From an uncultured virus (IMG/VR IMGVR_UViG_2654587972_000002) (taxonomy: Duplodnaviria; Heunggongvirae; Uroviricota; Caudoviricetes), in the IMG/VR virus record IMGVR_UViG_2654587972_000002: a stretch of DNA of 64,000 nucleotides. The stretch is one strand, 5' to 3'. The notes beneath the pieces were generated by a model, which did no database searches, had not been told where the DNA came from, and saw nothing but the letters and a program-made list of their open reading frames with translations. The position numbers were made by a program, and so were the translations under genes. Shown here piece by piece: positions 36,148-60,110 of the stretch (position 1 is its first letter; every line of letters starts with the position of its first letter).

Positions 36148-36245
36148 ATGGATGTTAAAAGAGATGAAAAAATTTTAGAATTAGTTAATATATTAAAAAA
36201 TACAAAGTATTTAGTTTTCTTTGGAGGAGCAGGGACTTCAACTGA
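36148..36245 (+). pseudogene. cobB: 5' fragment of host sirtuin gene interrupted by prophage 2
   Basis: AGGAGG RBS; MDVKRDEKILELVNILKNTKYLVFFGGAGTST then homology is lost; stop at 36285. Confidence 0.85.
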
Positions 36246-36281
36246 AATTACTTCAATAAACTACCAAAATAAAAAGAGAGC

Positions 36282-37004
36282 CTAAGCTCCCATTTTAATA
36301 ATGTTTATAACTTTATCCATAGTATCAGCAAAGTTACTATTTAAAACCAATGATGCCTCATTATCATATTGAGTATTTTCATTGTTAATAATAACTAAAT
36401 TTTTACCTTTAAAATATCTTAAATAATAAGCAGCAGGATACACTGTTAAACTTGTTCCTGCAACGATTAAAGTGTCTGCTTGTTCTAATTGATAAATAGC
36501 TTCATTAACCACAGCTTGATTTAAATTTTCACCATATAGAGTAACATCAGGTCTAACTATACCACCACATCCACAAGAAAAATTATTGCTTGCTGTTTTT
36601 CCACAATCTAAACAATACCATCTTTTTAGACTTCCATGTAATTCTAAAACATTTTTATTTCCTGCCATTTGATGTAAATCATCTATATTTTGAGTAATAA
36701 CAGCTTTTAAAACTCCAATTCTTTCTAACTCAGCCAAAGCTAAATGTCCCTTGTTAGGTTTTATTCCATTAATATTTAATTCATTTTCGACATACTCCAT
36801 AAAAATATTTCTATGAGAATAAAAGAAGTCTGAACTTAATACTTCTTCTGGTCTGTATTTTCCCTTGTATAAAGTGCTATATAAACCATCTTTCCCCCTG
36901 AAACTTTTTAATCCACTATCTGTTGAAACTCCTGCTCCTGTGAAGAAAATAAGATATTTAGAATTTTTTATAATATCAGCTAATTTTTGAATTTTATCTT
37001 CCAT
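36282..37004 (-). CDS. cobB: NAD-dependent protein deacylase (Sir2/CobB), phage-borne full-length copy
   Basis: TGAGVSTDSG, TQNIDDLH, LHGS, RPDVTLYGE, GTSL. Confidence 0.92.
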   Translation of the reverse strand: MEDKIQKLADIIKNSKYLIFFTGAGVSTDSGLKSFRGKDGLYSTLYKGKYRPEEVLSSDFFYSHRNIFMEYVENELNINGIKPNKGHLALAELERIGVLKAVITQNIDDLHQMAGNKNVLELHGSLKRWYCLDCGKTASNNFSCGCGGIVRPDVTLYGENLNQAVVNEAIYQLEQADTLIVAGTSLTVYPAAYYLRYFKGKNLVIINNENTQYDNEASLVLNSNFADTMDKVINIIKMGA

Positions 37005-37024
37005 TTACATCACCTCTTTTTTAG

Positions 37025-37072
37025 AGTATAACACAGTAACAAAAAAAAGCAACTTATATAGAGTTGCTTTTT
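37025..37072 (-). promoter_or_regulatory. terminator after integrase plus extended -10 promoter for phage cobB
   Basis: AAAAAGCAACT/AGTTGCTTTTT hairpin; TGtTATACT on minus strand. Confidence 0.6.
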
Positions 37073-38489
37073 AATAGAATAAAATTGAAATTTTCAATGG
37101 ATAAAAGGATATTACTCTAATTTCTTTTATCAACATTTTTAAAATTTTTCTTGTTTCTATAACATCTTCTTCATCATAGTTTTCAATAATAAATTTTAAC
37201 TTTTCTAAAAGTTTTATATCATTATTTTTTGGAATATTTAAATTCTTTTCAAATTCAAGTTTTTTTTCTTTTGCAATTTTAATTCTAGCATTAAGATCTT
37301 TAAATCTATTTTCAAGTTCATCTTCGCTGATATAACTCTTTTGAAATAGATTTATTATTCTTTCTCTCTCATTTTCTAATACTTTTAAATTATTTTCAAG
37401 TTTTAATAATTTTTTTTCATTTTTCTCAATATCATTAGAATTATAATTATTCAAATCTTCTAATTCTTTTGAATTTAGAATCATTTCTTTAATAGTTTTA
37501 TCCATAATTTTAGCAGAGAAGGATTTTTTATGTTTTCTATTTTTACATGAATAAGAGTAATAAGCGTATTTAGTATTGTCTTTATAACTCCTATTCCTCT
37601 TTTGCTGATACATCTTATCTCCACATTCACAATAAATCATAGATGAAAACAGTAAATAAGGTTTATAATCCCCATAAAAAGCTCTTGATTTTATATTTTT
37701 TTCTCTAATAGACTGACAAAATTCAAATAATTCAAGAGGAACAATTGGTTCATGAAGTCCTTTATACCACTTTATGTCTTTTTTACTTACTTGAGTTCTA
37801 TTTTTTTGATTTAATTCTTTTACATATTTTCTTAAAGGAACATAACCAATATAAATTTTATTATCAATAATATCAACTATATCCATTCTTGTTTTATTAA
37901 ATATTCTAGCAGTTTCAGTTAGATTAAAATTTTTAGCATATGTTTCAAAAATACTAAGTATATAAGGAGCCTTTTCAGGATCAGGAACAATCATTTTATT
38001 TTCTCCTCTAATGTATCCTGTTGCTGGTCTACCATGAACAAAATATCCTGCTTTTGTTTTTTCTTCCAAATTACTTTTTATTCTTAAAGACATCTGCTTT
38101 AAATCTTCAGTACCCCAAGCTAAGAATATAGAAAGTGTCATAAAATCTTTTAAATATGGTTGTGAGATACTATCAAAAGTAATTTTATATAATTCTAATT
38201 CTTCAAAAAACTTCATTCCTGTTGAAATTTTTCTTGCTATTCTTGAAATTTCCCAGAAAACTATTTTAGTATATATTTTCTTACTAATAGCTCCAAAAAG
38301 TTCGTTAAACTCTTTTCTGTCATCTATTCTTCCACTTTCAATATCTTGGTAAACTTTTAAGACTTCATAACCTTTTTCTTTGCAGTAGTCTAAACATTTT
38401 TTTAATTGAAGATTAAGGGAGCTATCACTCCCTTTGTCTCTAGTTTGTTCTTTTTTTGATACTCTAATATAAATGGCAACTTTTTCCAT
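37071..38489 (-). CDS. large serine recombinase (integrase)
   Basis: YIRVS catalytic motif, SRIAR, HEPIV, CECG zinc ribbon, coiled coil. Confidence 0.93.
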   Translation of the reverse strand: MEKVAIYIRVSKKEQTRDKGSDSSLNLQLKKCLDYCKEKGYEVLKVYQDIESGRIDDRKEFNELFGAISKKIYTKIVFWEISRIARKISTGMKFFEELELYKITFDSISQPYLKDFMTLSIFLAWGTEDLKQMSLRIKSNLEEKTKAGYFVHGRPATGYIRGENKMIVPDPEKAPYILSIFETYAKNFNLTETARIFNKTRMDIVDIIDNKIYIGYVPLRKYVKELNQKNRTQVSKKDIKWYKGLHEPIVPLELFEFCQSIREKNIKSRAFYGDYKPYLLFSSMIYCECGDKMYQQKRNRSYKDNTKYAYYSYSCKNRKHKKSFSAKIMDKTIKEMILNSKELEDLNNYNSNDIEKNEKKLLKLENNLKVLENERERIINLFQKSYISEDELENRFKDLNARIKIAKEKKLEFEKNLNIPKNNDIKLLEKLKFIIENYDEEDVIETRKILKMLIKEIRVISFYPLKISILFY

Positions 38490-38603
38490 TTATGAAGCCT
38501 TTTTCTTTAAAATTAATTTATTGTAAAGTTCTTCAATTTGCTCTACTACTGCTCTTTTTATTATATTTATTTCTTCGTTTTTTACTGGTTTATTAGTTTC
38601 CAT
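38490..38603 (-). CDS. small protein (37 aa) coupled to integrase
   Basis: AAGGAG RBS; TAA directly followed by integrase ATG. Confidence 0.5.
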   Translation of the reverse strand: METNKPVKNEEINIIKRAVVEQIEELYNKLILKKKAS

Positions 38604-38625
38604 ATTATACTTAGCTCCTTTCCTT

Positions 38626-38913
38626 TTATCTCCAATATTTGCAAGAAAAATCTTCTTGTTGTTCATAACCAAGCTCTATGGTTGTAGCTTCTGATTTTTT
38701 AATAACAAATTCATTTATTTCATCTGAAAGCTCATCTGCTAAATCATATAAATCATTAGGATCTAAAAACCTTCTGAAATGATTATCAAAAAAATTTGTA
38801 ATAATATCCAAAGTTCCCCAGTAAGAAGAGGGAACATCTGGATAAAGTTTTTCATTTAAAATAGTACATTTTCCTTTGTTATAGTTAGAACACCATTTAC
38901 AAATTTTTTCCAT
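38626..38913 (-). CDS. hypothetical Cys-containing protein
   Basis: CKWC..C...FSC. Confidence 0.6.
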   Translation of the reverse strand: MEKICKWCSNYNKGKCTILNEKLYPDVPSSYWGTLDIITNFFDNHFRRFLDPNDLYDLADELSDEINEFVIKKSEATTIELGYEQQEDFSCKYWR

Positions 38914-38922
38914 TTAACTCAC

Positions 38923-39315
38923 CTAGTATCCTAGTTGTTCATTTAGGTCTGGGTTTTCAAAAATATTACCAACAATTTCAAAGTCTCCTTCTAGGTCTGA
39001 AAGATGTTCTGTAATATTTTCATAAGAAACACGATAAGTCGCATCTTCATCATCATAGGAAATTAATCCATAAATATCATCTATACCATCATTGAATTTA
39101 ATTACATCTGCTTCATAAAGCTCTTGACCTGCTTTGTCTTTTGCTCCTGAAAATTGTAGAAGCTCTATATCTTTAAATGCAACAGTTTTATAATTTTCAT
39201 TAAATAAATTACCATCTTCTGTATATCTTATATATTCATAGTTAAAATCTATTCCAATAATAGCAACCATTTTCTTTTCTTTCTTCAACCAGGCTTTCAT
39301 TTTAAATTCTTTCAT
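38923..39315 (-). CDS. YopX-family protein
   Basis: LLQFSGAKDKAGQELYEAD, EIVGNIFENPDL. Confidence 0.85.
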   Translation of the reverse strand: MKEFKMKAWLKKEKKMVAIIGIDFNYEYIRYTEDGNLFNENYKTVAFKDIELLQFSGAKDKAGQELYEADVIKFNDGIDDIYGLISYDDEDATYRVSYENITEHLSDLEGDFEIVGNIFENPDLNEQLGY

Positions 39316-39324
39316 TTTATCCCC

Positions 39325-39900
39325 CTAAGCAGTTTTAATTTTAATAATTTCTCTATCAACCATATTTAAGTATTTTTCAGATGATTTTATTAGTTCTTGA
39401 ACTTCTTCTTTAATATTAAGTTCATTGACTAATTTTTTTATTCTATCTAATTTAAAATTTTTAATAAGTTTATTCCAGGAATGAATAGTATCTGTAAACC
39501 CAGCTGGAAGCTTTTGTAATTTATCTTCCAAGGTCATTGGTGCTTTTTCCCAAATAGAATTTGCACAGTCTTTAACATGTGCTTTCATTACTTGTCTAGT
39601 GTAGAAATTATCTTCATATTCTATGTCCTGTTCTTTGACATCGTCATAGCATTTGTCATAAATTTCAGATGTTAAATTTTTACATCTACCAATCAGTATT
39701 TTGTAATAAGTATTTAAATAACCATCTTCTTCATTCTTCCAAACTTTTTGATGATTACCAATTACAATTTCTAGTGAAAGTAAAAGAGTCTTTAAACTAA
39801 GAGCATCAAGCTCACTTTCAGTAGGTTTTTCTATAAATTTAATTTCTTTCTTTTCATTTATCTTGATTTGTCTTTTCACAGTCTTTTGAGCTTTTCTCAT
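39325..39900 (-). CDS. hypothetical protein
   Basis: RBS, operon position. Confidence 0.6.
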   Translation of the reverse strand: MRKAQKTVKRQIKINEKKEIKFIEKPTESELDALSLKTLLLSLEIVIGNHQKVWKNEEDGYLNTYYKILIGRCKNLTSEIYDKCYDDVKEQDIEYEDNFYTRQVMKAHVKDCANSIWEKAPMTLEDKLQKLPAGFTDTIHSWNKLIKNFKLDRIKKLVNELNIKEEVQELIKSSEKYLNMVDREIIKIKTA

Positions 39901-39965
39901 TTTTACTCCTTTCTGCTAGAAGAGCAGTTAAAGCTAATTTTAAAATATCCATTTTCTTATTCTCC

Positions 39966-40529
39966 TTATAAAAAGCCATCTTTTTTTAATTGTGCATATT
40001 CTTTAAGTTGTTCACTTAGTTCTTCTTTTTTTACTTGAAAATCTTCAAATCTATCGGTCTTTTCAGTTACAGTCATGTGACCTTTTTCAGATATAAATTG
40101 AGTGGGGAAAATGATAATATAAGGAGCTTTTAAACCACTCCCTTCTTCACTTTCTAAAAAACCAACATAAATATCTGCTTTATTGTTGCATTCAAAACCC
40201 CAAGATTTTTTACCACTTCTCATTCTTATAGATGAGTACTTTACATCTATATATAATCCATCTAAGCAAAAATCAAAGATTGGATTATTTTTTTGCCAAT
40301 ATTTATTAGCATTAACTGCATCAGGAACTAACTTTTGAAAATATTGTTCAGCTTCTCCACCTAATCTTGTAGCTTTTCCACCATATTTTATTTTGTCTTG
40401 AATTTTTAAAAGACCACTTGTTAATAAAATTTTATGTGCAGCCAATATTGGTAAACCACTTCTCTTAACAGCTTCATAAAAATTTCCACATTCCATATAT
40501 ATTTCAACCACTTTATGCAATATCCTCAT
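39966..40529 (-). CDS. HTH + PD-(D/E)xK nuclease-like protein
   Basis: GGEAE...FDF...IDVKYS. Confidence 0.5.
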   Translation of the reverse strand: MRILHKVVEIYMECGNFYEAVKRSGLPILAAHKILLTSGLLKIQDKIKYGGKATRLGGEAEQYFQKLVPDAVNANKYWQKNNPIFDFCLDGLYIDVKYSSIRMRSGKKSWGFECNNKADIYVGFLESEEGSGLKAPYIIIFPTQFISEKGHMTVTEKTDRFEDFQVKKEELSEQLKEYAQLKKDGFL

Positions 40530-40755
40530 CTCCTAATAAATAAGTTTCTGTACCTTTTTTTACAAACCAAAATTTAGAAACTGTGAAATATAATATATTT
40601 TTTCTAGTAACTTCTATTCTTTTTATAAAATAAGTACCTAATTTTATTGAAAAAAGTTCATATTTAGCTATACCTAATTTTGATTTGTGTAAAATAATAT
40701 CTCCTGGTTTTAATTCAACATTCAATTTATTATTTACAAGTTCAATCTTTTTCAT
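40513..40755 (-). CDS. hypothetical protein
   Basis: operon position. Confidence 0.55.
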   Translation of the reverse strand: MKKIELVNNKLNVELKPGDIILHKSKLGIAKYELFSIKLGTYFIKRIEVTRKNILYFTVSKFWFVKKGTETYLLGDEDIA

Positions 40756-40759
40756 TATT

Positions 40760-40969
40760 TCACATCCAACTCTCTAATAGAAGAAATGGAAAATTAAGTT
40801 TATATTTTAAGTTTTTCCAAAAACTTGCTTTTTTACTTTTATTTATGGTAAAACCATTAATTTTTTTACCTTTATTTGCAATAACTACAGCTTTGCTATA
40901 ATCATTTGTAAGGTATTCACCATTTACAAGCCATAAATTTTCTCCAATTTTTCTTATTTCTAGCATCAT
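40760..40969 (-). CDS. hypothetical protein
   Basis: AGGAGG RBS before ATG. Confidence 0.55.
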   Translation of the reverse strand: MMLEIRKIGENLWLVNGEYLTNDYSKAVVIANKGKKINGFTINKSKKASFWKNLKYKLNFPFLLLESWM

Positions 40970-40983
40970 GTCCTCCTGTTTTC

Positions 40984-41080
40984 TTGACACCACAAATAAC
41001 TTACTGTAAAATAAAACTGTCTGAGGGCTTTATCAACACAAGCAAGTTACTTGCAGTGCAAAATTGATAAAGTTCTTTTT
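40984..41080 (+). ncRNA. candidate small antisense RNA with own promoter
   Basis: TTGACA-17-TAAAAT; 13-bp stem with G-U pairs (41024-41076) + T-run. Confidence 0.6.
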
Positions 41081-41255
41081 ATTCTGTAAGTCTTTTAAAA
41101 ACTTTTATAAAAATTTCAAGTTCTTCATTTTCTTTCTTCATTGCAATAATTCTTGCAATACCTAACATTGCAACTGCAACATCATCATCTATTAAGGATT
41201 TATTGCTTTTTATAGTAGTTTCTGCTTTTTTAATTAAATCATCTTTAAAAATCAT
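41079..41255 (-). CDS. small hypothetical protein (58 aa)
   Basis: GGAGG RBS; ATGA overlap with upstream gene. Confidence 0.6.
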   Translation of the reverse strand: MIFKDDLIKKAETTIKSNKSLIDDDVAVAMLGIARIIAMKKENEELEIFIKVFKRLTE

Positions 41256-41878
41256 ATTTCCTCCACTAGTTGTTGTAATTTTTTTATATATTCTGTAAGC
41301 TCTTTTTTATATTCCTGCTTATCTTCATCTTTTAACTTCAATGTTCTTTTCTTCATTTTTTCAACTTTTTTAAAGTTAAAAAACTTTTGTCCAGCTGGAA
41401 GAAATTCCATTTTATTTTTTTCAATAGCAGGAAGTAGTTGTTTTCTAATTTCTTTAACTTTATAGATATTATTTTCTAAAATTCCTAAAACTTCTTCATA
41501 TTGAAGATCCTTATTTGTTAGAATTTTTATTGCTTGATCTGAATAAGCAAATATTTTTTCTTTGTAATCTTGGAACTCTAGATATAAATTCCATCTTTTT
41601 AAGTAAACTGAAACAGCATCTTTTGTAAGTCCCTTAGACTCATACCAAGCCATAAATGAATTAGTAGGTTTTAAAGTTTTTTCAATCAATGCTAGTGATG
41701 AACACATGTCAAATAGATTATTTTTCATTTTTTTATATGTATTCATAAATATTTTTTCTTGCTCAGACACAGTAGCAATTTCAACATCATTTAATTCGTA
41801 ACTGGCGAAGTCAAATTCTTTTATTTCTGTTTTGGAAGATAAAACAACATCAAAATCATTTTCTAAATTTTTATTCAT
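41252..41878 (-). CDS. putative ParA partner/DNA-binding protein
   Basis: overlaps parA-like gene; FMAWYES..LTKDAVSVY helical motif. Confidence 0.5.
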   Translation of the reverse strand: MNKNLENDFDVVLSSKTEIKEFDFASYELNDVEIATVSEQEKIFMNTYKKMKNNLFDMCSSLALIEKTLKPTNSFMAWYESKGLTKDAVSVYLKRWNLYLEFQDYKEKIFAYSDQAIKILTNKDLQYEEVLGILENNIYKVKEIRKQLLPAIEKNKMEFLPAGQKFFNFKKVEKMKKRTLKLKDEDKQEYKKELTEYIKKLQQLVEEI

Positions 41879-42578
41879 TGTCTATCTCCTTCCAGATATT
41901 TATAAAAATACCTTTAACATAATCTAATTTTTGAGATTTACTTTCCCATATTAAAGTTTCTTTATCAACTAATTTAGAAATAAGGCTAATTTGTGGAATA
42001 GGAAAACTTAAATATATTCCTTGTACTCCTAATTTTTGGTTTAAGAAATCATAATATTCCTTTTCTAGCTTTGTTCTTCCAGTTCTATTTGGAACAACAG
42101 CCTTAACCTTGTTTAAATCAACTTTTTTTAACATACTTAATACTGAATGTGTTGTAATATTATCAAGAAAAGTTGGAATAACTATATAGTCAGATACCTG
42201 AATAAATAAATTATCTAATCCCATTACTGGAGAACCATCAATAACAATATAGTCATATTCTTCTTTTAAAAGTTTTATAGCTTTTTTAAAAGCCTCATCA
42301 AAAGAATTTTTTATCTTATATCCTTGCAGATGCAAGAAGAAAAGATTTTCTCTTAATTTTTTAATTTTATAGCTTTTACCTTCAATGAAATCTTCAAGTC
42401 CAAATTTGCTTGTATCATCAATTTTTATCCCTGAAAATTTTAAAATATCATTTTGGGAATCGCTGGTAAGAATCAATGTCTTTTTATTTTTTATTAATGC
42501 TTTGTGTGCTGCTAATTGTAGAGTTATATAAGTTTTTCCAACTCCACCTTTATTATTTTTAACTAAAATAATTCCCAT
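41871..42578 (-). CDS. ParA-family ATPase
   Basis: KGGVGKT deviant Walker A, YDYIVIDGSP. Confidence 0.88.
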   Translation of the reverse strand: MGIILVKNNKGGVGKTYITLQLAAHKALIKNKKTLILTSDSQNDILKFSGIKIDDTSKFGLEDFIEGKSYKIKKLRENLFFLHLQGYKIKNSFDEAFKKAIKLLKEEYDYIVIDGSPVMGLDNLFIQVSDYIVIPTFLDNITTHSVLSMLKKVDLNKVKAVVPNRTGRTKLEKEYYDFLNQKLGVQGIYLSFPIPQISLISKLVDKETLIWESKSQKLDYVKGIFINIWKEIDNE

Positions 42579-42594
42579 AAAATCCTCCTATTTT

Positions 42595-42969
42595 TTATTT
42601 TTTTTCTAGCTTATTTTTAAAATAAGTTTTAGAATTTTTTAAATTCACAAATGTGTATCCAGATTCTTTAAGAGTTCTTAAAGACTTACTAAGTCCTCTT
42701 TTTTTGTTACATAAGTGCCAAGCTCCAAATTTTTTTATAACAATTCCTGATAAAACTTCATCATCTTTAGTTGCAAGAATAAAGTCTTGCCTATAAATCA
42801 TTGAGGTTCCAGCAGTATATCCAGTTGCTTCAAGCCATTCAACTTCTTTAAAATCAAATTCCTTTTTCTGACCATTTGAAATAGCTATCATTTTTTTATT
42901 TCTGTAATCAATGAAGCTAACACTATATGTTTTTTTATCTGTACAGCTATAAATTTTTCCTCTTAGCAT
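42595..42969 (-). CDS. hypothetical protein (YopX-like)
   Basis: WLEATG..IYRQD. Confidence 0.45.
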   Translation of the reverse strand: MLRGKIYSCTDKKTYSVSFIDYRNKKMIAISNGQKKEFDFKEVEWLEATGYTAGTSMIYRQDFILATKDDEVLSGIVIKKFGAWHLCNKKRGLSKSLRTLKESGYTFVNLKNSKTYFKNKLEKK

Positions 42970-42980
42970 TATTGCTCCTT

Positions 42981-43190
42981 TCAGTTATAAAATTCAGGGT
43001 CTTTTAGACTTTTAAATGCTCCAATTTTTATAGCACATAAATGCCATAATAACTTTCCATAACTAGAGCAATATTTATATTTTTCAAAATCAAGTTTTTC
43101 TTCATCAGGAAGTATTTTATTGACTTCTTCAAATTGTTTTTGGACTTCACACCATTTTGCAAATGGCATGTTGATTTTTATTGTTGACAT
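42981..43190 (-). CDS. hypothetical protein
   Basis: GAGGAGG RBS. Confidence 0.55.
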   Translation of the reverse strand: MSTIKINMPFAKWCEVQKQFEEVNKILPDEEKLDFEKYKYCSSYGKLLWHLCAIKIGAFKSLKDPEFYN

Positions 43191-43201
43191 AAACCTCCTC
43201 T

Positions 43202-44176
43202 CTAAATTAAACTTTTTTCTTGAAGCTCTTCCAAAATAAAAGGACTAATCAATCTATAATACATAGTTTCACTTTTATTTTTTAATTTAGAAAAATGCTT
43301 AATATTATGTTTTTTTAATATATTTAGTTCAATATTTTCTTGCTGCTCTAGAGGGAGACTTTTAAAAATTTCAAGATATTTTTCATTCTTTTCACACTCC
43401 TTTCTCTCATTTTCTTTAATTTTTTGATGTTCATTCTCTTTCTTTTCAAGCTCCTGAGAGTTTACTTCACAAGTTCCTTTGAAAAGGTGGTTAGAGAAAA
43501 CAGCAGCAATGCTTTTAATATCAGATTTATTTTTTAATATATCCAGTTGTTCCTGGAATATTTTTAAAATAAATTCTAGTGAATTATTTTCTAATAACTC
43601 TAAAACTTTAACTTCATGTTTCTTAGAAAAAGTAATTTCATTTTCTATGAACCATTGTTTTACAGTTTTTAATTTTTTATCAAGCTCATATGATTTATTT
43701 TCTTTATGATTTATTTCTTTATTTAAGTTATTTATATTATGTTCTTTATTGTTGCTAATTTTTAACAAACTAGTTTGTGAAATTTTTACAGAATAGTTTG
43801 TAAATTTTTTACAATCCAGTTTGTCAATTTTTAACAAACTAGTTTCCGTTTTTTTAAAAACTAGATTTTCAATTTCTTGAAAACTGATTTTAAAAAATCT
43901 ACGGCAGGGTGTTCCTCTATTTTCTTGGATTAGTATATTAGTTTCTATTAAATCTTGAATTATTTTATTTTGTTTATGTCTACTTAACCCTGTTAATTCT
44001 TCTAAGGTTTCAATAGTCTGATAGAACCAACCCTCATCATCAGCTAGTCCATCACTAGCTTCAATAAGAATTGTTAGCAAGAAAGCTGGTTCTATTCCTA
44101 ATGCTTTTACTATTTGTTTATTTAATGTGTAGTAATTGCTACTCATTAATAACTGTTTAAATGTTCTTTCTTGCAT
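43202..44176 (-). CDS. phage replication initiator protein
   Basis: winged-HTH N-terminus (GWFYQTIETLEELTGLSRHKQ); internal iterons. Confidence 0.8.
   Translation of the reverse strand: MQERTFKQLLMSSNYYTLNKQIVKALGIEPAFLLTILIEASDGLADDEGWFYQTIETLEELTGLSRHKQNKIIQDLIETNILIQENRGTPCRRFFKISFQEIENLVFKKTETSLLKIDKLDCKKFTNYSVKISQTSLLKISNNKEHNINNLNKEINHKENKSYELDKKLKTVKQWFIENEITFSKKHEVKVLELLENNSLEFILKIFQEQLDILKNKSDIKSIAAVFSNHLFKGTCEVNSQELEKKENEHQKIKENERKECEKNEKYLEIFKSLPLEQQENIELNILKKHNIKHFSKLKNKSETMYYRLISPFILEELQEKSLI
43757..43848. repeat. four 23-bp tandem iterons (putative origin)
   Basis: units at 43757, 43780, 43803, 43826; units 1 and 4 share AATTTTTAACAAACTAGTTT. Confidence 0.75.
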
Positions 44177-44193
44177 TTATTAAGCTCCTTTAA

Positions 44194-44451
44194 TTATTTT
44201 AAATTTTTTAAAATTTCTATTATTTCATCCAACTCTTTTAATTTTTCTTTTATTAATAAATCAGTGAAATATAAGTTTTTTCTATAATCAGGCTCTTTAT
44301 TATTTTTCCAGCCATCATAATGAATACTTATACAAAAACTTGAACAATGTCCCATAAAGTTAAAAAATATTGTATTTTTTTCTTCATTATTCTTTTCTAA
44401 TGATAAGTTTATTATTTCCAATATTTTTAATCTTATTCTTATATCCAGCAT
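44194..44451 (-). CDS. hypothetical protein
   Basis: AGGTGA RBS before ATG. Confidence 0.55.
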   Translation of the reverse strand: MLDIRIRLKILEIINLSLEKNNEEKNTIFFNFMGHCSSFCISIHYDGWKNNKEPDYRKNLYFTDLLIKEKLKELDEIIEILKNLK

Positions 44452-44460
44452 AACTTTCAC

Positions 44461-44637
44461 CTAGTCTTTTAAAATATCTTTCAAAGTATGGATTTCAACT
44501 TTTTTAGTACTGATATATTTCCATAATTCTTCATCATCAATGCCATTATCAAGTTTTATTTGGTATTCTTTTAGAGCTTCTTTTCTTAATTTATCTAATG
44601 CTACTATTCTAGATTCTATATATTGTTTAGTTTTCAT
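44461..44637 (-). CDS. small phage protein (58 aa), homolog of 1..174
   Basis: AAGGAG RBS; LKEYQIKLDNGIDDEELWKY. Confidence 0.7.
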   Translation of the reverse strand: MKTKQYIESRIVALDKLRKEALKEYQIKLDNGIDDEELWKYISTKKVEIHTLKDILKD

Positions 44638-44646
44638 TATTACTCC

Positions 44647-44883
44647 TTATTTTGCCATTCCTTTGTATAGTTTTTCCAATGAAACCATTGCTTCATCAAC
44701 TTTTGAATGTCCAGATTTTTCAATTATCTTTTTAATTTTGTTATACCAATTTTTAGCTTTCTCTTTATTGCTATAATGTCCAGGATCTATTCCTAGAAAA
44801 TCAAGTTGAGGTTTTCCTCCTAGCTCAACTAAGAAAAATATGTATTTAGAAGTTTCATCTTTGAAATATAAATTATTTTCCAT
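44647..44883 (-). CDS. hypothetical protein (J-domain-like fold without HPD?)
   Basis: LGI...AKNWYNKIKKII...EAMVSLEKLY. Confidence 0.45.
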   Translation of the reverse strand: MENNLYFKDETSKYIFFLVELGGKPQLDFLGIDPGHYSNKEKAKNWYNKIKKIIEKSGHSKVDEAMVSLEKLYKGMAK

Positions 44884-45076
44884 TTTCAACCCCCATTTCT
44901 TTCTTAATTTCATTAATAAATCTAGCATCAATATTCAATGCACAAGGTTCAATGTTAAAATTTTCTGGAAACTCTGAATAATTTAATTCAATTTCATTTT
45001 TAGCAGCTTGCAAAGTAGTGAAAGCTGAAAGAATTATTTTATCTTCATTTGTGATAATATAGATTGTTCTAATCAT
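44873..45076 (-). CDS. hypothetical protein
   Basis: GGTGA RBS; operon position. Confidence 0.5.
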   Translation of the reverse strand: MIRTIYIITNEDKIILSAFTTLQAAKNEIELNYSEFPENFNIEPCALNIDARFINEIKKEMGVENGK

Positions 45077-45191
45077 TTTTATCACCAGCAATCTTACAAG
45101 CATATCCCATTTTTTGTAGCTCTTCCTTGATTTCTAAAAGTTGGACATCTCCAAATCTTTCAATTAGATCATTCAATTCTTTTAAATTCAT
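45069..45191 (-). CDS. small hypothetical protein (40 aa)
   Basis: GAGGAGG RBS before ATG 45191. Confidence 0.55.
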   Translation of the reverse strand: MNLKELNDLIERFGDVQLLEIKEELQKMGYACKIAGDKND

Positions 45192-45222
45192 AAATTTTTC
45201 CTCCTCTTTGAGAGAAAAAAAC

Positions 45223-45342
45223 TTGTAAAATATAAGAAAACATGTTATAATTAGGCATAAGTTAAATAGGTGTTTGTAGAAGTTATTTGCTTTTCCATTC
45301 ACTATTCAATTAAAAGGGCTTCTGGCAGGTTGTCCTTTTTTT
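45223..45342 (+). ncRNA. candidate small antisense RNA with own promoter
   Basis: TTGTAA-17-TATAAT with extended TG; terminator AAAAGGGC/GTCCTTTT + T-run. Confidence 0.55.
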
Positions 45343-45350
45343 CTTTGCTA

Positions 45351-45587
45351 TTATTCATCTTGCATTACTTTTCCTGCTATCATTCCTAATTCAAAGTATT
45401 CATCTTTTATATTTTCAATTACTATAAAAAATAATTTTTGAAGTTCTTCAAATTCTTCATCAGTTAATTTTTCTTCCAGATAACTGATTTTTTTTACAGC
45501 CTTTTCAATACTAGTATTAGAATTTGTATTTATATAGCCTTTTTCCTTTAATGCTTCAATAAATTTTAATATTTTCTTATTCTCCGT
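45351..45587 (-). CDS. 78-aa ORF with ACG start, paralog of 48481..48702
   Basis: AGGAGG RBS then ACG; open to TAA; sequence similarity. Confidence 0.55.
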   Translation of the reverse strand, partial: TENKKILKFIEALKEKGYINTNSNTSIEKAVKKISYLEEKLTDEEFEELQKLFFIVIENIKDEYFELGMIAGKVMQDE

Positions 45588-45638
45588 ATTTTTTCTCCTC
45601 CTAAAATAATTTTTAAAAATTTTTAAAATATTTAAGTT

Positions 45639-45775
45639 AGTTGTTTTATATAACTTATATATTTTTTTATATTACTAGTTGGCTAAATAATAACACTAAT
45701 CATATAAGATGTCAAATGATTTTTTTAATTAGTTATATGTTTTAACTTGTTATATAGCTTTTACAATGGTATAAT
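45639..45775. promoter_or_regulatory. divergent promoters with two 17-bp palindromic operators
   Basis: minus TTGACA-17-TATTAT (45715-45687); plus TTGTTA-17-TATAAT (45747-45775); AGTT(A/G)-N7-TAACT at 45639 and 45731. Confidence 0.65.
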
Positions 45776-45810
45776 TATACAAAAGTTAAAATATTAAAGG
45801 TGGTGATGTA

Positions 45811-46026
45811 ATGTTAAAAAATCATTTATCAAAATTAATGGGAGAAAAAAGATACACAATTATTGAAGTTTCAAGAAAAACAGGTTTAACAACTTCAACA
45901 ATTTCTAATCTTTATAATGATAAAGTAAAAAGATTAGATTTTGATACCCTTGAAAAATTATGTAAATTATTTAACTGTCAACCAAATGATTTATTTGAGT
46001 ATATTCCAGATGAAACCCAAGAATAG
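45811..46026 (+). CDS. Cro/C1-type HTH regulator
   Basis: EVSRKTGLTTSTISNL...LEKLCKLFNCQPNDLF. Confidence 0.88.
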   Translation: MLKNHLSKLMGEKRYTIIEVSRKTGLTTSTISNLYNDKVKRLDFDTLEKLCKLFNCQPNDLFEYIPDETQE

Positions 46027-46027
46027 T

Positions 46028-46108
46028 TTAATCTTTCAGTAGTACAGTCCATAAGTTTTTGTGAACTTTGGGGAAAGTTGCTTATGAACCATACTACTTA
46101 AAGATTAA
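46028..46108 (-). repeat. conserved long hairpin element, copy 1
   Basis: ~27-bp stem with three G-U pairs on minus strand; inner AACUUU-CCCC-AAAGUU hairpin. Confidence 0.8.
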
Positions 46109-46149
46109 TTATTTTAATTTAAAAATTATTTGTGAAAGGAGATTCCACT

Positions 46150-46872
46150 ATGGGAGAAAAGAAACAAAAAACATGTTTTATCGTTTGTCCAATTTCAAGT
46201 GAAGGCAGTGATATTAGAAAAAATTCAGATAAACTTCTAAAACATCTTATACAACCTGTTTGCAACAAGTTAGGCTTTGAAGCAATTAGAATTGATAAAC
46301 ATTTTCATAATGAACAAATTACAGACGAAATAATAAAATATCTTGAAGAAGCAGAATTGGTTATTGCTGATACAACAACTAATAATCCAAATTGTTTCTA
46401 TGAAATTGGATATAGAAAAGCTATTTCAAAACCTCTAATACTAATAAGAAGTGTTGGTGAAGATCTTCCTTTTGATATTTCTGGAATAAACTCTCTATCT
46501 TACAACCTTCAAGATTTGGATAATGTTGAGGAGTTTAAAAAGAAATTAGAAGGAAATATATCTATTTTAGATTTTGAAAATTCTTATCCTAAAAATAAAA
46601 CAGATAAAAACTCTGATGAAATCTTAAATAAAATATTTCAATTGTTACTTAGCTTAGAAAATAAATTAGATTTAATTAATACAGAAAATAAAGGTTATAA
46701 TAAGAATATAGCTTCTTTTACTGCTATAATTTCTTCACTTATCCAAAAAGCCAATAATAGCCATCCTAAAACAGAGGAAGAATATGTGTTATCTGTATTC
46801 AAAGAAGCTATTAAGAATCCAGATAACTTTTCTAAAATAATGGCAATGGTAGATGCACCAAACAAGAAATAA
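46150..46872 (+). CDS. nucleoside 2-deoxyribosyltransferase-like domain protein
   Basis: CFIVCPI, LVIADTT.NNPNCFYEIGY, LPFDI. Confidence 0.7.
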   Translation: MGEKKQKTCFIVCPISSEGSDIRKNSDKLLKHLIQPVCNKLGFEAIRIDKHFHNEQITDEIIKYLEEAELVIADTTTNNPNCFYEIGYRKAISKPLILIRSVGEDLPFDISGINSLSYNLQDLDNVEEFKKKLEGNISILDFENSYPKNKTDKNSDEILNKIFQLLLSLENKLDLINTENKGYNKNIASFTAIISSLIQKANNSHPKTEEEYVLSVFKEAIKNPDNFSKIMAMVDAPNKK

Positions 46873-47025
46873 TTATTTCTTGTTTGTACTATCATAAAAG
46901 CCTTTATAGAAAGCTAATTTAATTTCTTTTTCTTGCAACTTATTTTTAAGTTTTTCTATGTCTTTATCGTAGTTTAATCCTTTAACAATTATTGTCCACA
47001 TATATATTTTTTCTTGTATACTCAT
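46873..47025 (-). CDS. small hypothetical protein (50 aa)
   Basis: GAGGT RBS, ATG 47025; MSIQEKIY...KLAFYKGFYDSTNKK. Confidence 0.6.
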   Translation of the reverse strand: MSIQEKIYMWTIIVKGLNYDKDIEKLKNKLQEKEIKLAFYKGFYDSTNKK

Positions 47026-47045
47026 ATTTTTACCTCACTTTGTTA

Positions 47046-47123
47046 TAATCTTTCAACAGTATAGTCCATAAGTTTAATGAACTTTTAGGAAAGTTGCTTA
47101 TGAACTATATTATTCAAAGATTA
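47046..47123 (-). repeat. conserved long hairpin element, copy 2
   Basis: about 85% identical to copy 1 by eye, with stem-preserving changes. Confidence 0.8.
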
Positions 47124-47192
47124 ATTATTATTTTATTTACTTAATCCTTAAGCTCTCCTAAATATAAATAGTTAGTTACGAAAGGAGAATAA

Positions 47193-47639
47193 ATGGAGTT
47201 CCATAATTATTTGATTAATGAAAAATTTTTAAGAGATAAAGAAAAGGAATTATTCTATATAGAATTCCTTAATAATGATGAATACTCTAAATTGGGTATT
47301 GATTATGGTATCAATACTAAAAAAATTTACTTTGTAATAGGTTCTTCAAAAGAGCAATTCTATGAAAATGATAAAACATTACTGACTTTATATCTTCCTC
47401 TAAATGTAAAAGAAGATGGTAAAGATTTAAATATTGAATTAAATTTAATGAACTTCTTAAAAAGATGGTATTATGAAAAAAATGATATAATACCTAGATT
47501 AGAGTTAACTAATACTAAAATTAATTATAAAAATAATATTTTCAATTCACTATTTCCTTTAACAAAAGAAAACTTTTTCTATGAAGGAATAGAAGATAAC
47601 TCGGCTATATTCAGAATTTTAATAAATCATAAATTTTAG
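47193..47639 (+). CDS. hypothetical cargo protein flanked by 14-bp inverted repeats
   Basis: AAGGAG RBS; AAATAGTTAGTTAC at 47166 and its reverse complement at 47656. Confidence 0.65.
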   Translation: MEFHNYLINEKFLRDKEKELFYIEFLNNDEYSKLGIDYGINTKKIYFVIGSSKEQFYENDKTLLTLYLPLNVKEDGKDLNIELNLMNFLKRWYYEKNDIIPRLELTNTKINYKNNIFNSLFPLTKENFFYEGIEDNSAIFRILINHKF

Positions 47640-47709
47640 TATAAAAAATTTAATTGTAACTAACTATTTTTTCAATAAACAATAAAAATATTTAAAGAAG
47701 GTGTTTTTT

Positions 47710-48120
47710 ATGAAAATGGATCCTGATTGCATTAGAGATATACTACTTCAAACAGAAGAAAGATTTGTTATTATTCCTTTGCCTCGTTTAAATTTTGATA
47801 CCTGTAAAATGGAAGATCCAGAACCTTTACCAAAAGAGAAGTATCCATATATTTATCAATATGATATGAAAAAAATAATTTATCATGTTGAACTAGCTGC
47901 TGAAATGGATTTTATAAAACTTAATGATCTAAAAGATATTTATAAAATTGAGGATTTAACAGCACAAGGACATTTACTTCTTGCTGACATCAGAAATGAA
48001 GATGTTTGGAGTAAAACCAAAGATATTGCTAAAAAAACTGGAATATCTTCACTTGATGCTTTAAAACAAATAGCAGTTAATGTTGTTTCATCAATGATTA
48101 CTAATTATTTTCAAAGATGA
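47710..48120 (+). CDS. DUF2513-like protein
   Basis: MKMDPDCIRDILL...LTAQGHLLLADIR..VWSKTK. Confidence 0.75.
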   Translation: MKMDPDCIRDILLQTEERFVIIPLPRLNFDTCKMEDPEPLPKEKYPYIYQYDMKKIIYHVELAAEMDFIKLNDLKDIYKIEDLTAQGHLLLADIRNEDVWSKTKDIAKKTGISSLDALKQIAVNVVSSMITNYFQR

Positions 48121-48330
48121 GATACGACCAATATCTAAAATTAAATGTTCTTCTATTTTTCCATTTTCATTTAATTGATAGTCTATTTTAAAACTTTGAA
48201 TTCCCACTATCTTTTGTCCATTAATCTCAATAGAAGGAACTGAATGTGTTCTTTCCACTGAGATTTTTATATCATTAGTAGGAATTTCATTGTTCTTTTT
48301 TAGCTTTAAAAATTTATTTTTTTTCTTCAT
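48091..48330 (-). CDS. hypothetical protein
   Basis: GAGGTGA RBS. Confidence 0.6.
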   Translation of the reverse strand: MKKKNKFLKLKKNNEIPTNDIKISVERTHSVPSIEINGQKIVGIQSFKIDYQLNENGKIEEHLILDIGRISSLKIISNH

Positions 48331-48349
48331 TTTCTCACCTCATTTATTT

Positions 48350-48437
48350 TTAATTTCTCAATAGTATAGTTCATAAACTTCAAAAAAATGAGGGGTAGGG
48401 AAAAATAAATCTATGAACTATACAATTCAAAAATTAA
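48350..48437 (-). repeat. conserved long hairpin element, copy 3 (different loop)
   Basis: same outer stem GTATAGTTCATA/TATGAACTATAC; C-rich loop on minus strand. Confidence 0.75.
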
Positions 48438-48450
48438 TTACTTATTTTTA

Positions 48451-48475
48451 ATGGCTCGTAGAATTTACGAGCCAT
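48451..48475. terminator. perfect 10-bp hairpin
   Basis: ATGGCTCGTA-GAATT-TACGAGCCAT. Confidence 0.5.
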
Positions 48476-48480
48476 ATTTC

Positions 48481-48702
48481 TTATTTTTTTTCTTTGCAAT
48501 AGAGGAAACCTATTTCTAAAAATTCATTCTTTGAAACTTCAACTGCTTTGTTAAAAAGAGTTTCTAATTCCTGTTTTTCTTCAATAGAAATATTTAGACT
48601 ATCTACTAATTTTTTAAATTTTTCATCAAATTCCCCTACTTTTGATTTAAATAGTCCTTTTGTTTCCAGCTCTTCCAAAAAATTAATAAGATTAACATTC
48701 AT
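48481..48702 (-). CDS. first gene of leftward operon, hypothetical
   Basis: GGGAGG RBS; divergent from repressor. Confidence 0.65.
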   Translation of the reverse strand: MNVNLINFLEELETKGLFKSKVGEFDEKFKKLVDSLNISIEEKQELETLFNKAVEVSKNEFLEIGFLYCKEKK

Positions 48703-48925
48703 ACAGTTTCCTCCCTTATAATAAAATAAATATAGTTAGTAATTTTAATTAATTTTATTAATTTTTTAAAACAAATAAATTAAAATATTAAATTTTATAA
48801 ACTATTTACTTAATACTATAATATAAAATTAAAAGTTGTCAAGTATTTTTTTTAGTGATATACTAAGTTATTAAAATAAAGTTATTAGTTAATTATTTAA
48901 TCCAACTAAAAAGAAAGGAGTTAGG

Positions 48926-49390
48926 ATGAGAACAACTAGTGAAATTTTAAAAGAATTTAGAAAAAGTAGAGAAATGACTGCTGCAATGATGGCTGAAAAA
49001 TTAGGAATATCGGCTGTAACTATGTCTGCTATAGATGTTGGTAGGAAAAAGCTCTCTGAACAAATGCTTGATAAACTTGAAACTATGTTACCTAAAGATG
49101 ACTTTATAGATTTATTGAAATCTGAAAGAGAAATGAACCTACCTTCTTTTTTACAAAAAAAATTTGAAAAATATGGTATTCAATCAGAAGCAATAACAGA
49201 TACTACAAACATTTCAGAGGTATCAGAAGAGGGGAAAAGAAAGATCTATGATTTTATAGAGCTTGTAAAAACTGCTGAAAGAGCAAGAAATAATAGAGAA
49301 ACTGTTAATATCACAAACCTATCTACTGAAAATAAAGAAAAAGCAAGAGAATATATAGAATTATTAGAAATTAAACAAGAACAAAAATAA
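48926..49390 (+). CDS. XRE-family HTH repressor
   Basis: LKEFRKSREMTAAMMAEKLGISAVTMSAIDVGRKK. Confidence 0.8.
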   Translation: MRTTSEILKEFRKSREMTAAMMAEKLGISAVTMSAIDVGRKKLSEQMLDKLETMLPKDDFIDLLKSEREMNLPSFLQKKFEKYGIQSEAITDTTNISEVSEEGKRKIYDFIELVKTAERARNNRETVNITNLSTENKEKAREYIELLEIKQEQK

Positions 49391-49496
49391 ATTTTTCAGA
49401 AGTACTTGGAGCAGCTCTTAGTGGTCTAGATAAATTATTTGAAGATGAAGAAACTGAAAATAATTCTAATTAATTTTTAAAATATTTATACTTGTA

Positions 49497-49530
49497 TAAA
49501 ATAGGACTTTTTAAAGAGGTCCTATTTTTT
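49497..49530 (+). terminator. terminator after repressor
   Basis: AAAATAGGACTT/AGGTCCTATTTT. Confidence 0.7.
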
Positions 49531-49634
49531 ATTTAAAAAATTTTCTTGACTTTTAAAAAAAATAAGTTATCATTATAAATGAATTAGTTTAATAAATTTA
49601 AGTAATAAATTTAATTTTTAAAAGGAGCTTTTTT

Positions 49635-49859
49635 ATGAATGCTTATGATCCTTACAGGTATTACATAAAAATAAGAGATGGAACTATAATTATAGATGGG
49701 AAAGAATGTCCTAATATTATTGGAAAGTACTGTTTCTATAATAAAAATACTTTTAAAAAAAGTCTCAAAGAACTTTCTGAAAAATATAGAGAAGATCAAA
49801 TAACTACATACCAAAATATTAGAGGCAGGTGGTATGAATGTCCAAAACCAAATATTTAA
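49635..49859 (+). CDS. hypothetical protein
   Basis: AAGGAG RBS; upstream TTGACT promoter candidate. Confidence 0.6.
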   Translation: MNAYDPYRYYIKIRDGTIIIDGKECPNIIGKYCFYNKNTFKKSLKELSEKYREDQITTYQNIRGRWYECPKPNI

Positions 49860-50029
49860 ACAATAAAGAAATTGGTCGTAGTTATTGTAGCTGTGGAAAT
49901 TATTTATATTCAGATACTGAAAAAAGAATAAAAGTTGCTAGTAGAAATCAAGTTACTTATTATTTTGAAGAAAAGTGTTTAGAAATAAATTGCTCACATT
50001 GCAATAAAAGTACCAAAGTGAAGTTGTAA
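49838..50029 (+). CDS. small zinc-finger protein (Com-like)
   Basis: CSCG...INCSHC. Confidence 0.55.
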   Translation: MSKTKYLNNKEIGRSYCSCGNYLYSDTEKRIKVASRNQVTYYFEEKCLEINCSHCNKSTKVKL

Positions 50030-50030
50030 A

Positions 50031-51119
50031 ATGTATGGATTAGATAGAGCTTGTATCTCTGTTGATGTTGAAACTGATATTTTGTATGTAAGGGAAAAGA
50101 TAAAAAAAATTTTTCCACATTCTTTTTCAGAGAGTCTTTCTAATAGTATGAATAGTTATAAAATTGATAAGAAAAATATTAATTTTATAAAATTAGAAGA
50201 AAAAAAACTTAAAAAAATAACAACTATTAAAATTGACTTTTCCTATCCTAGGTTTTTTGAAGAAGATAATATTTATCCACTAGATAATGAAATTCAAAAA
50301 ATTATGGTGGAGACAGACTTATTATTATTAATTAATAAACTAACAGATTATGAAATTAAAATAAGTGAATTGAAATATGATTATTTTGAATTTACAACAC
50401 AAGAAGCTATAGGAAATTTTCATAAGTTTCATAACATTATAAGTCACTTTTATCGTGGACTTACTAGAAAATTTGAAGATTTAGATAAAACACAATATTA
50501 TAATTTTAATCCAACTGATAACAAATTCTTTACAACAGGATTTATTTTTCAACCATTTCCTGGGTGGAAAATAAGACTTTACAGTAAAGGACATGAAAAC
50601 AATAAAAAAAAGAACACTAGAAAAGTAAGGGGAGCAATTCTCCGAGTAGAACACAGACTGAGTAAAAAGATTATAAAAGATTTTTTTAAATTAAATTCAA
50701 TAGAATACATATCAATACAAGAAATTAAAGATTGTATACAAAAAACAATATCAAAAACTCTTGCTGATATAATTATTGCAGAGTTAGAAAATTCTATAAA
50801 TATTTTAAAAAATAATTTTAAAAATTTTAAATGTAGAGAATTAGATTCCATTGTAAGGGATAATCTCGAATGGATATTTGATTATAAAATACTAGATGAT
50901 ATTGTTACCCAATTTTCTGACAAATCCTATCGTAGGGTTGTCTTTTATCGAAAAAAGATAAAAGATATATTAATTACTTCACAAGGCAGAGCATCTCCAA
51001 AGAGAGATTATTTTTCTAATATAGAAAGGCTCGAACTTTTCTTCAACAATCTTATTCTTTTCAATTGCAAAGTTAAATGTAACACAAAAAAGCATTTAAA
51101 AATTTTTTGCACTAATTAG
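50031..51119 (+). CDS. hypothetical protein with Rep_trans/CRI-like motifs
   Basis: GLD near N-terminus; IRLYSKGHE...ILRVEHRL. Confidence 0.45.
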   Translation: MYGLDRACISVDVETDILYVREKIKKIFPHSFSESLSNSMNSYKIDKKNINFIKLEEKKLKKITTIKIDFSYPRFFEEDNIYPLDNEIQKIMVETDLLLLINKLTDYEIKISELKYDYFEFTTQEAIGNFHKFHNIISHFYRGLTRKFEDLDKTQYYNFNPTDNKFFTTGFIFQPFPGWKIRLYSKGHENNKKKNTRKVRGAILRVEHRLSKKIIKDFFKLNSIEYISIQEIKDCIQKTISKTLADIIIAELENSINILKNNFKNFKCRELDSIVRDNLEWIFDYKILDDIVTQFSDKSYRRVVFYRKKIKDILITSQGRASPKRDYFSNIERLELFFNNLILFNCKVKCNTKKHLKIFCTN

Positions 51120-51296
51120 GATGAAAAAACGTCCTATTTTCACTCTTAAAAAAAATATTTTCCTTTTGTTTTCAATGCTTTTATAACTTTTTCTCGCGTG
51201 ATAACAATGTGTAGCACTGCATTCCTAAAACTGAAAATATTACTATTTGCTTTTAATATGCAGTAAGAAAAAACAAAAAAGAACCAGGAGAGAGCT

Positions 51297-53281: not shown

Positions 53282-53394
53282 GGTACTGTCAGAGAAAAAG
53301 TTAGTTAGAGGGTCCAAGAGGCTCAAACTCTGTCAAATTTTGAAAAATTTTCAACCTTGCCAAAAATATTTTGACATACATGAAAGGAGAAAAA

Positions 53395-55600: not shown

Positions 55601-55815
55601 GTTTTACAGTAGAACAATGTCAAGCACATTTAGATGCTTGGTTAGAAGCTGACTTAGCTGTTTCAAAAGGACAAAGTTATACAATTGGGAAAAGGGTACT
55701 TACAAGAGTTAATGCAACAGAAATTGCAAAAAATATAAGAATTTGGGAAGACAGATTACAACAAGCAAAAAGAAGAAGTTCAGGACCTAGGACAATTCAA
55801 ATAATTCCAAGATAG
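55597..55815 (+). CDS. head completion protein (gpW-like)
   Basis: GQSYTIGKRVLTR; between terminase and portal. Confidence 0.75.
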   Translation: MSFTVEQCQAHLDAWLEADLAVSKGQSYTIGKRVLTRVNATEIAKNIRIWEDRLQQAKRRSSGPRTIQIIPR

Positions 55816-55823
55816 GAGGAAAT

Positions 55824-58473: not shown

Positions 58474-58482
58474 GAGGTAAAA

Positions 58483-58797: not shown

Positions 58798-58808
58798 GGG
58801 GAATGTAA

Positions 58809-59816: not shown

Positions 59817-59817
59817 T

Positions 59818-59841: not shown

Positions 59842-59862
59842 CAAACAAAATTAGGAGAATAT

Positions 59863-60099: not shown

Positions 60100-60110
60100 A
60101 GGATCTAAAA

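Follow-up and report, generated by a model that had tools for sequence, protein, structure and literature searches.

A Funu1-like prophage inserted in the host sirtuin gene cobB carries a complete cobB of its own

Why should a temperate phage that lands inside a housekeeping gene also carry a complete version of that gene? The question is posed by a 64,000-nucleotide stretch of DNA from an uncultured member of the Caudoviricetes (IMG/VR record IMGVR_UViG_2654587972_000002; the whole stretch is hereafter called the window), in which a prophage, designated prophage B, enters cobB, the gene for a sirtuin-type protein deacylase dependent on nicotinamide adenine dinucleotide (NAD). Three open reading frames (ORFs) meet at its left end, laid out as an earlier note on this DNA had described them: 36148-36285 on the plus strand (45 residues), 36282-37004 on the minus strand (240 residues) and 37071-38489 on the minus strand (472 residues), the first containing the severed start of host cobB, the second being a full-length cobB and the third an integrase gene (int). 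That note had read the arrangement as integration into cobB by a phage which brings a full-length replacement, a reading now upheld by the empty bacterial attachment site (attB), the far-end remainders of the split gene, the natural phage attachment site (attP) and the linkage of int to cobB. Prophage B integrates into the only sirtuin gene of its host and carries a complete copy of that gene, which we consider probably to be a spare.

The host part of the disrupted gene extends from 36148 to 36242 on the plus strand and comprises codons 1-31 of cobB plus 2 nucleotides, promoter-proximal and reading into phage DNA, where 13 phage-derived codons followed by a stop complete the 45-residue ORF at the left junction (attL). 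This ORF aligns with residues 2-29 of the 240-residue protein (16 of 28 identical; pairwise E 4e-10), and tblastn within the window gave a match at 36163-36246 (E 5e-6). The next best tblastn match had an E of 0.26, and the 3′ half of cobB was therefore not found in the window.

A scan of species-representative genomes for the empty site yielded locus L018, in the metagenome-assembled genome of an uncultured Fusobacterium (G001), which is 98.2% identical to window positions 34977-36245 and then continues into an intact cobB. The first 32 residues encoded by this gene are those of the window stub, and the stub agrees in every letter with the beginning of the gene in G001. The sequence of the empty attB is CTTTGGAGGAGCAGGGACTTCAACAGATAGTGGAGTAAAGGATTTT. 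The earlier note had left room for phage-free strains with the same minus-strand cobB at this place; the phage-free G001 has a single cobB, intact and on the plus strand, and no minus-strand copy. A cobB gene is present in all 22 Fusobacterium species genomes.

The missing part of the split gene is found in related prophages. In IMGVR_UViG_2654587559_000001 (42,280 bp), one end carries int (97% identity) and the opposite end cobB residues 26-237, on the strand opposite to int and preceded by ...TTTTGGTAATTAATGGAGTGAACATCAAC and an in-frame stop. Two of the 22 species genomes, G004 and G013, are lysogens with both ends visible, in which about 43 kb separate a complete phage cobB from a host remainder interrupted by stops; the far-end 3′ remainder that the earlier note had called for is thus in place in these relatives. 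The phage cobB of G004 is 97% identical to the window copy, and G013 harbors a diverged phage with an integrase 78% and a cobB 86% identical to those of the window. No intact cobB beyond the phage copy was seen in the lysogens examined. Prophage B and the prophages of G004 and G013 are collinear, from which the far junction of prophage B is expected about 15 kb past the window end.

Unintegrated attP was seen in two metagenome contigs. L093, with the gene order holin, attP, cobB, int, has a natural attP that reads TTTTGGTAGTTAATGGAGTGAATATCAACTGAAATTACTGCCATAAACTACCAAAA, and L168 contains the equivalent site of a G013-type phage; together with the empty attB of L018, they provide from natural sequences the attB and attP that the earlier note had proposed to rebuild. 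The phage cobB ends 40 bp from the crossover, within the phage genome, and these contigs therefore place cobB inside the phage. The sole stretch common to attL, the right junction (attR), attP and attB is the crossover core TCAAC (36238..36242). The center of attP symmetry is the AC at 36241-36242, the first phage-specific base is 36243, and the P′ arm at the left end of the phage, TGAAATTACTTCAATAAACTACCAAAA (36243..36269), is the same arm as in the natural attP of L093. The attP arms pair around the AC at 21 of 27 positions in L093 and at 18 of 27 in L168, and at no more than 11 when the center is shifted. The earlier note had correctly placed the junction inside cobB; its position, given there as about 36245, has to be moved to the core at 36238-36242, with phage DNA from 36243, and the last three letters (TGA) of the 20-mer that it assigned to the host belong to the phage, the empty site reading ...TCAACAGATAG.

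The integrase (37071..38489, minus strand, 472 residues) has the domain order of large serine recombinases, namely Resolvase (PF00239, 1.7e-19), Recombinase (PF07508, 8.6e-10) and Zn_ribbon_recom (PF13408, 2.5e-6), with a YIRVS sequence near its N-terminus which we take to be the catalytic-serine motif. The attachment sites are likewise of the kind used by this class, with imperfect inverted arms around AC and identity between attP and attB confined to TCAAC. From the natural substrates (attP, attB) and products (attL, attR), the enzyme is predicted to catalyze the attP x attB reaction, recombining an imperfectly palindromic attP of about 56 bp with an attB inside cobB that covers the codons of the NAD-binding GAGxSTxSG motif. 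Integration cuts cobB at about codon 32, leaving the 45-codon stub and a far-end remainder with no start codon and an in-frame stop ahead of it, so that host cobB would be off while the prophage stays in place and would be regained through precise excision. At the attR of IMGVR_UViG_2654587559_000001, the cobB frame reads ATG GAG TGA, placing a stop two codons ahead of the core. Because of this stop at attR and the early end of the stub at attL, there is no fusion gene, and neither junction shows the in-frame rebuilding of the target that a duplicated gene end would provide.

The phage-borne cobB (36282..37004, minus strand) encodes a 240-residue protein that matches Pfam SIR2 (PF02146, E 2.7e-44), scores 303.6 bits against a cut-off of 221 with the NCBIfam equivalog NF001752 (NAD-dependent protein deacylase) and aligns end to end with Sir2Af2 (1ma3, E 1.5e-47). 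The GAGxS, QNID and HG (catalytic His) motifs and the four Cys of the zinc module are conserved with respect to Sir2Af2 and invariant among phage alleles; the functional roles of these residues in phage CobB are presumed. A defense-type SIR2 was considered and rejected on the strength of the NF001752 score and of the 78-88% identity to Fusobacterium cobB.

In front of the gene, a promoter and ribosome-binding region (37005..37043, minus strand) can be read from the sequence, with AAGAGG and an extended -10, TGTTATACT (minus strand 37032-37024), upstream of the ATG; the promoter is absent from the output of a consensus scanner. This region shares homology with the sequence ahead of native host cobB genes of type P, one of the two types of host arms described below. 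Terminator-like hairpins lie over the cobB stop (36276..36291, minus strand) and after the integrase gene, between int and cobB (37044..37072, minus strand), the latter insulating cobB; two such sites were observed, compared with 0.5 in shuffles. The insulation, extended -10 and ribosome-binding site that the earlier note had described are all present, and the whole may be viewed as a self-contained sirtuin cassette beside attP, equipped with a promoter of host type and a ribosome-binding site of its own and bounded by terminators at either end, which would supply the only intact CobB of the lysogen.

Contigs from RNA sequencing (RNA-seq) libraries of two studies (four of four runs compared) cover phage cobB and bridge attL, extending from 36147 or 36161 to 37005-37022. 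They are consistent with transcription of phage cobB, short of proving it. The contig ends shared at 37019-37022 were dropped as a candidate transcript start, the comparison having covered RNA runs only, and the lack of RNA-library contigs over the integrase gene is not usable as evidence of its silence.

Is the pairing of integrase and cobB a general property of these phages? The co-occurrence that the earlier note had suggested examining is kept in every informative instance: among ten IMG/VR contigs, cobB adjoins int in all six that extend beyond the int stop, the other four ending at int. In a metagenome set of 80 loci encoding relatives of phage CobB, int is immediately upstream of cobB in 25, and the phage cobB next to int is 96-99% conserved in IMG/VR and metagenome contigs. 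Matches resembling int occur in 25 of 131 genomes of the family; of the 20 such loci that were fetched, only the three whose identity is 63% or more are accompanied by a cobB within 1.5 kb.

At least three diverged integrase lineages, represented by G004, G013 and G086 (99%, 78% and 63% identical to the window integrase, respectively), target the same cobB codons, and each has a full-length cobB. Window-type junctions always have host arms of type N (FFGGAGTSTDSGV...), and G013-type junctions always have host arms of type P (FFTGAGVSTESGL...). The G086 lineage, with the same core as the window type, shows a second architecture. Its integrase abuts the host 3′ remainder and, on another contig, its full-length cobB begins 34 bp after the stop of the host stub and in the same direction, so that the spare directly follows the promoter and 5′ fragment of host cobB. 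Phage tail-fiber and endolysin genes lie beyond this cobB, with host genes on the opposite side; in the phage backbone, cobB is still between the lysis genes and int, with attP on its other side. Both attP and attB are defined for window-type and G013-type phages; for the G086 type, the attP arms were observed only within attL and attR, and neither an unintegrated attP nor an empty attB was observed.

Some related loci depart from these arrangements. A 2513-nt contig, L117, has an integrase variant (77.7% protein identity), a distinct P′ arm joined to a type-N host arm and a G013-like 240-residue cobB, and constitutes a fourth att/integrase variant. In L143 (448-2433), a window-type element, three unrelated ORFs (358, 116 and 208 residues) occupy the position of int upstream of cobB, and the match to int is limited to the last 54 nt before the terminator. 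A 7.8-kb scaffold (L021; G002:C93) contains a frameshifted type-P host-like cobB facing the 3′ end of a second cobB copy, which runs off the scaffold; no integrase is nearby, and the locus may be either a draft-assembly artifact or a rearranged element.

We next consider the origin of the phage alleles. The phage cobB copies, at 78-88% identity to Fusobacterium cobB, are of Fusobacterium origin. Window-type phage CobB shares 78-80% protein identity with the type-N host CobB that it replaces (nonsynonymous divergence, dN, 0.12-0.14), and the G086 phage allele is 87.7% identical to the remainder in its own host. The ratio of nonsynonymous to synonymous divergence (dN/dS) is 0.15 between the window allele and that of the G004 phage and 0.069 (dS 1.1) between the window allele and that of the G013 phage, purifying selection that supports NAD-dependent deacylase activity of phage CobB indirectly. 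In a maximum-likelihood cobB tree of 28 rows, the window-type phage alleles form a clade of their own (98/93), grouped with the type-P and type-N host clades (98/97), and the G013 phage allele is nested inside the type-P host clade (100/99). As the phage rows do not form one clade and G013 is placed among hosts, cobB would have been either captured repeatedly by the phages or overwritten through recombination with host genes.

Does the phage copy escape its own integrase, as the earlier note had surmised? Over 44 positions, 22 nt to the left and 22 nt to the right of the central AC, the phage copy differs from the targeted attB at 11 positions in the window (versus G001), 15 in G004, 12 in G013 and 17 in G086, compared with 0-9 mismatches among the type-N host alleles themselves. 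Over the core, the G013 phage copy departs from the host in a row of nine codons, with seven of the changes being synonymous, and the core itself reads TCGAC. The window-type phage copy retains TCAAC and the following 9 bases of its target. Changes private to the G013 phage copy occupy 10 of 42 footprint positions versus 41 of 669 elsewhere (hypergeometric p 3.8e-4), and the same count is reached by 82 of 670 windows of equal size, all at the gene ends; as a statistical case for erasure of the att site in this copy, the excess is suggestive only and is explained equally well by mosaic ancestry. The host cobB of G016 shares the TGSGVSTD motif with the G013 phage copy. Phage-type cobB served as attB in none of the attL and attR junctions listed, from which resistance does not follow, as the opportunities were uncounted. 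An integration-resistant phage allele is nevertheless plausible and would be a sensible arrangement, since a genome holding attP together with a functional attB would undergo rearrangement.

Several contigs join phage-like and host-like cobB, and the phage copy seems to have been exchanged with host copies by recombination. In L125 (cobB at 2481-3194), the P arm is followed by a cobB piece which is host-like for about 490 nt and then phage-like, by the terminator, by the P′ arm and by a host stub. In L106 (cobB at 2501-3282), int is followed by a cobB which is phage-like for two thirds of its length and type-N host-like at the end. The two contigs resemble the pair expected if the prophage had been inverted by recombination of its cobB copy with the host 3′ remainder, with assembly chimeras at shared sequence being an equally possible cause. 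L121 and L122 contain a 2.8-kb remnant (450-3270) with both flanks 99% identical to the G008 chromosome, in which exactly the host cobB 3′ remainder has been replaced by an inverted phage-type cobB with its P′ arm; there is no integrase. These are best read as remnants in which the phage allele became the resident cobB. They also hold two ORFs which, going by their sequence, we take to be HicB-like and ToxN/AbiQ-like.

The G013 phage allele is itself host-like in its middle (one private change between alignment columns ~105 and 540), its ends and att core staying different. This mosaic, the L121/L122 remnants and the L106/L125 hybrids suggest that the spare may turn cobB into a one-way street for allele replacement, in which the split host gene would be dispensable and a phage or hybrid allele would become permanent after recombination or prophage decay, a scenario that we put forward tentatively. 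Its corollary would be that the copy must stay unrecognizable to its own integrase, which would explain both the mostly synonymous changes over the G013 core and the 11-17 mismatches out of 44 in all lineages.

If the phage copy is active, as its conservation suggests, it would complement the broken host gene, and this may be the reason for its retention; the most likely benefit would be to remove the cost of landing in a highly conserved housekeeping motif. Several observations weigh against this explanation or narrow it. The window ends inside prophage B, and its own attR and cobB 3′ half are projected from relatives. The RNA-library contigs show no strand and may stem from DNA carry-over. 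In some related elements (L143, L121, L122), int does not adjoin cobB. Finally, the phage rows are monophyletic in 0% of bootstrap trees, which fits complementation but would not fit one simply inherited phage gene.

The strongest competing explanation treats cobB as a selfish moron, by which the phage would remove the host sirtuin and install its own allele so as to rewire lysine deacylation, with effects on the lysogeny/induction decision, on counter-defense or on NAD handling. The separate clade of the window-type alleles and their limited identity to the type-N host CobB would agree with this, as would the retention of cobB in every lineage and the presence of sirtuin-like genes across many phages of unrelated kinds (tblastn matches in 147 phage records, none reaching 60% identity). 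However, the gene has a promoter region homologous to the one at native host cobB genes and is shielded from phage transcription by terminators, and the G086 copy is placed behind the host cobB promoter, all of which also speaks against the earlier suggestion that deacylation comes under phage control. In addition, near-host alleles such as those of G086 and G013 are tolerated and phage/host hybrid genes occur, making this explanation, in our estimate, unlikely.

A second possibility, that cobB is a neutral hitch-hiker, acquired from host DNA in a single event of aberrant excision or duplication beside attP and having no role, draws on its clear Fusobacterium origin and on its location directly beside attP, where captured DNA tends to sit. 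It is made very improbable by the persistence of an intact cobB in at least three integrase lineages, down to 63% integrase identity, by dN/dS values of 0.07-0.15, by the gene having its own promoter and two terminators, and by its retention in decayed elements that have lost int; moreover, a whole inverted gene is not a product of simple aberrant excision at this site. A further view takes the minus-strand cobB for the native host gene and the plus-strand stub for an old relic, with nothing disrupted by the phage; it is compatible with the bare layout alone and is refuted by the empty site (L018/G001), where the gene identical to the stub is intact and no minus-strand copy exists, and by the attP contigs, which put the minus-strand gene inside the phage.

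The surroundings of the locus are those of two prophages placed back to back in AT-rich DNA (22-33% GC across the window). Genes of prophage A are on the plus strand from 242 to 34849 and terminate with an M15 endolysin, a DUF1353 protein and a holin. A 1.3-kb host island separates the two prophages and contains a solute-binding protein gene (34966-35988), in which the Pfam match begins only at position 105 of 368, along with the 45-codon ORF. Prophage A interrupts this family-5 solute-binding protein gene, homology to the phage-free L018 beginning at about 34977, inside the gene; the left end and integrase of prophage A fall outside the window, and its tail-fiber region (31183-32225) is about 74% identical to its counterpart in the G004 cobB prophage. 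In prophage B, the minus-strand 240-residue and 472-residue genes next to the host island are followed by phage early genes and, from about 46 kb to the window end, by plus-strand replication, terminase, portal and tail genes. The part of prophage B beyond the integrase gene (38490..64000) is collinear with the G004 and G013 prophages and continues past the window, with attR outside.

By nucleotide similarity and gene order, prophage B belongs with Funu1 (KR131710.1; host F. nucleatum 7_1), and is probably a temperate myovirus of Fusobacterium. A 7.7-kb query (window 36246-44000) shows 91.4% nucleotide identity to Funu1 over 69% of its length, and the two share the recombinase, ParA, the replisome organizer and a P2-like tail gene order. 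The public Funu1 record, on the other hand, begins inside the recombinase (misc_feature <1..1197) and is without cobB or att sites. A later paper that refers to the work on Funu1 reports the induction of two lysogenic phages from strain 7-1 (PMC9670143). A gene of about 306-325 residues near the lysis end (L015 4828-5748; KR131710.1 36774-37748) is annotated as “integrase” in Funu1. The product of this lysis-end gene has what we presume to be a tyrosine-recombinase-like C-terminus.

Sirtuin genes are reported in many phages (PMC9503650). The window CobB shares the SIR2 fold with phage sirtuins and defense-type SIR2 NADases; unlike the defense NADases, it is a near-orthologue of the host housekeeping CobB and has no fused effector or sensor domain. 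Human fecal records labeled “Bacteriophage sp.” (MT83xxxx; CobB matches of 44-49%) were dropped as a sign of a wider phage-cobB phenomenon: MT835563.1, MT835522.1 and MT836245.1 (“UNVERIFIED Bacteriophage sp.”) appear to be pieces of bacterial chromosome with MFS, EF-G-like, QPRTase and RtcB genes, and no recombinase was present in these three opened records. Full-text literature searches, with subscription journals outside their coverage, gave no mention of phages targeting cobB or of whole-gene spares.

If the proposed explanation is correct, the strategy would be to land where the coding sequence of a housekeeping gene is most conserved, in a motif that offers a dependable attB from species to species, and the price of such a landing site would be that the phage carries a whole copy of the gene, presumably a working one. 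This would bear on how the cost of lysogeny is managed and would suggest a route by which core genes are replaced horizontally through phages. In Fusobacterium, which is studied for its link to colorectal cancer, lysogens would then run on sirtuin alleles different from those of non-lysogens. In addition, the several natural serine-integrase sets could be of use as genetic tools in this hard-to-engineer organism.

Large serine integrases that insert into host genes include those of A118 and phi10403S in comK, SPbeta in spsM, Bxb1 in groEL1 and skin in sigK. The present phage resembles these gene-splitting elements in its integrase architecture, in a palindromic attP of about 50 bp around a non-palindromic dinucleotide and in the restoration of the gene by excision. 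To our knowledge, such elements leave the host without the target gene during integration, whereas the phage in the window also brings a complete copy of it. Another group of elements restores its target by partial duplication, as do phage 21 and e14 in icd, SXT in prfC and the tRNA-targeting integrases, and here, too, the element compensates for the damage to the target gene. As far as we know, however, these elements carry only the displaced gene end in or beside attP, which yields a fusion gene. The phage in the window has an in-frame stop at attR and forms no fusion, and its copy is a separate whole gene with its own promoter, inverted in the window type or in tandem in the G086 type. What is new in relation to both groups, as we know them, is repair by a separate whole gene, conserved across lineages and occurring in two architectures.

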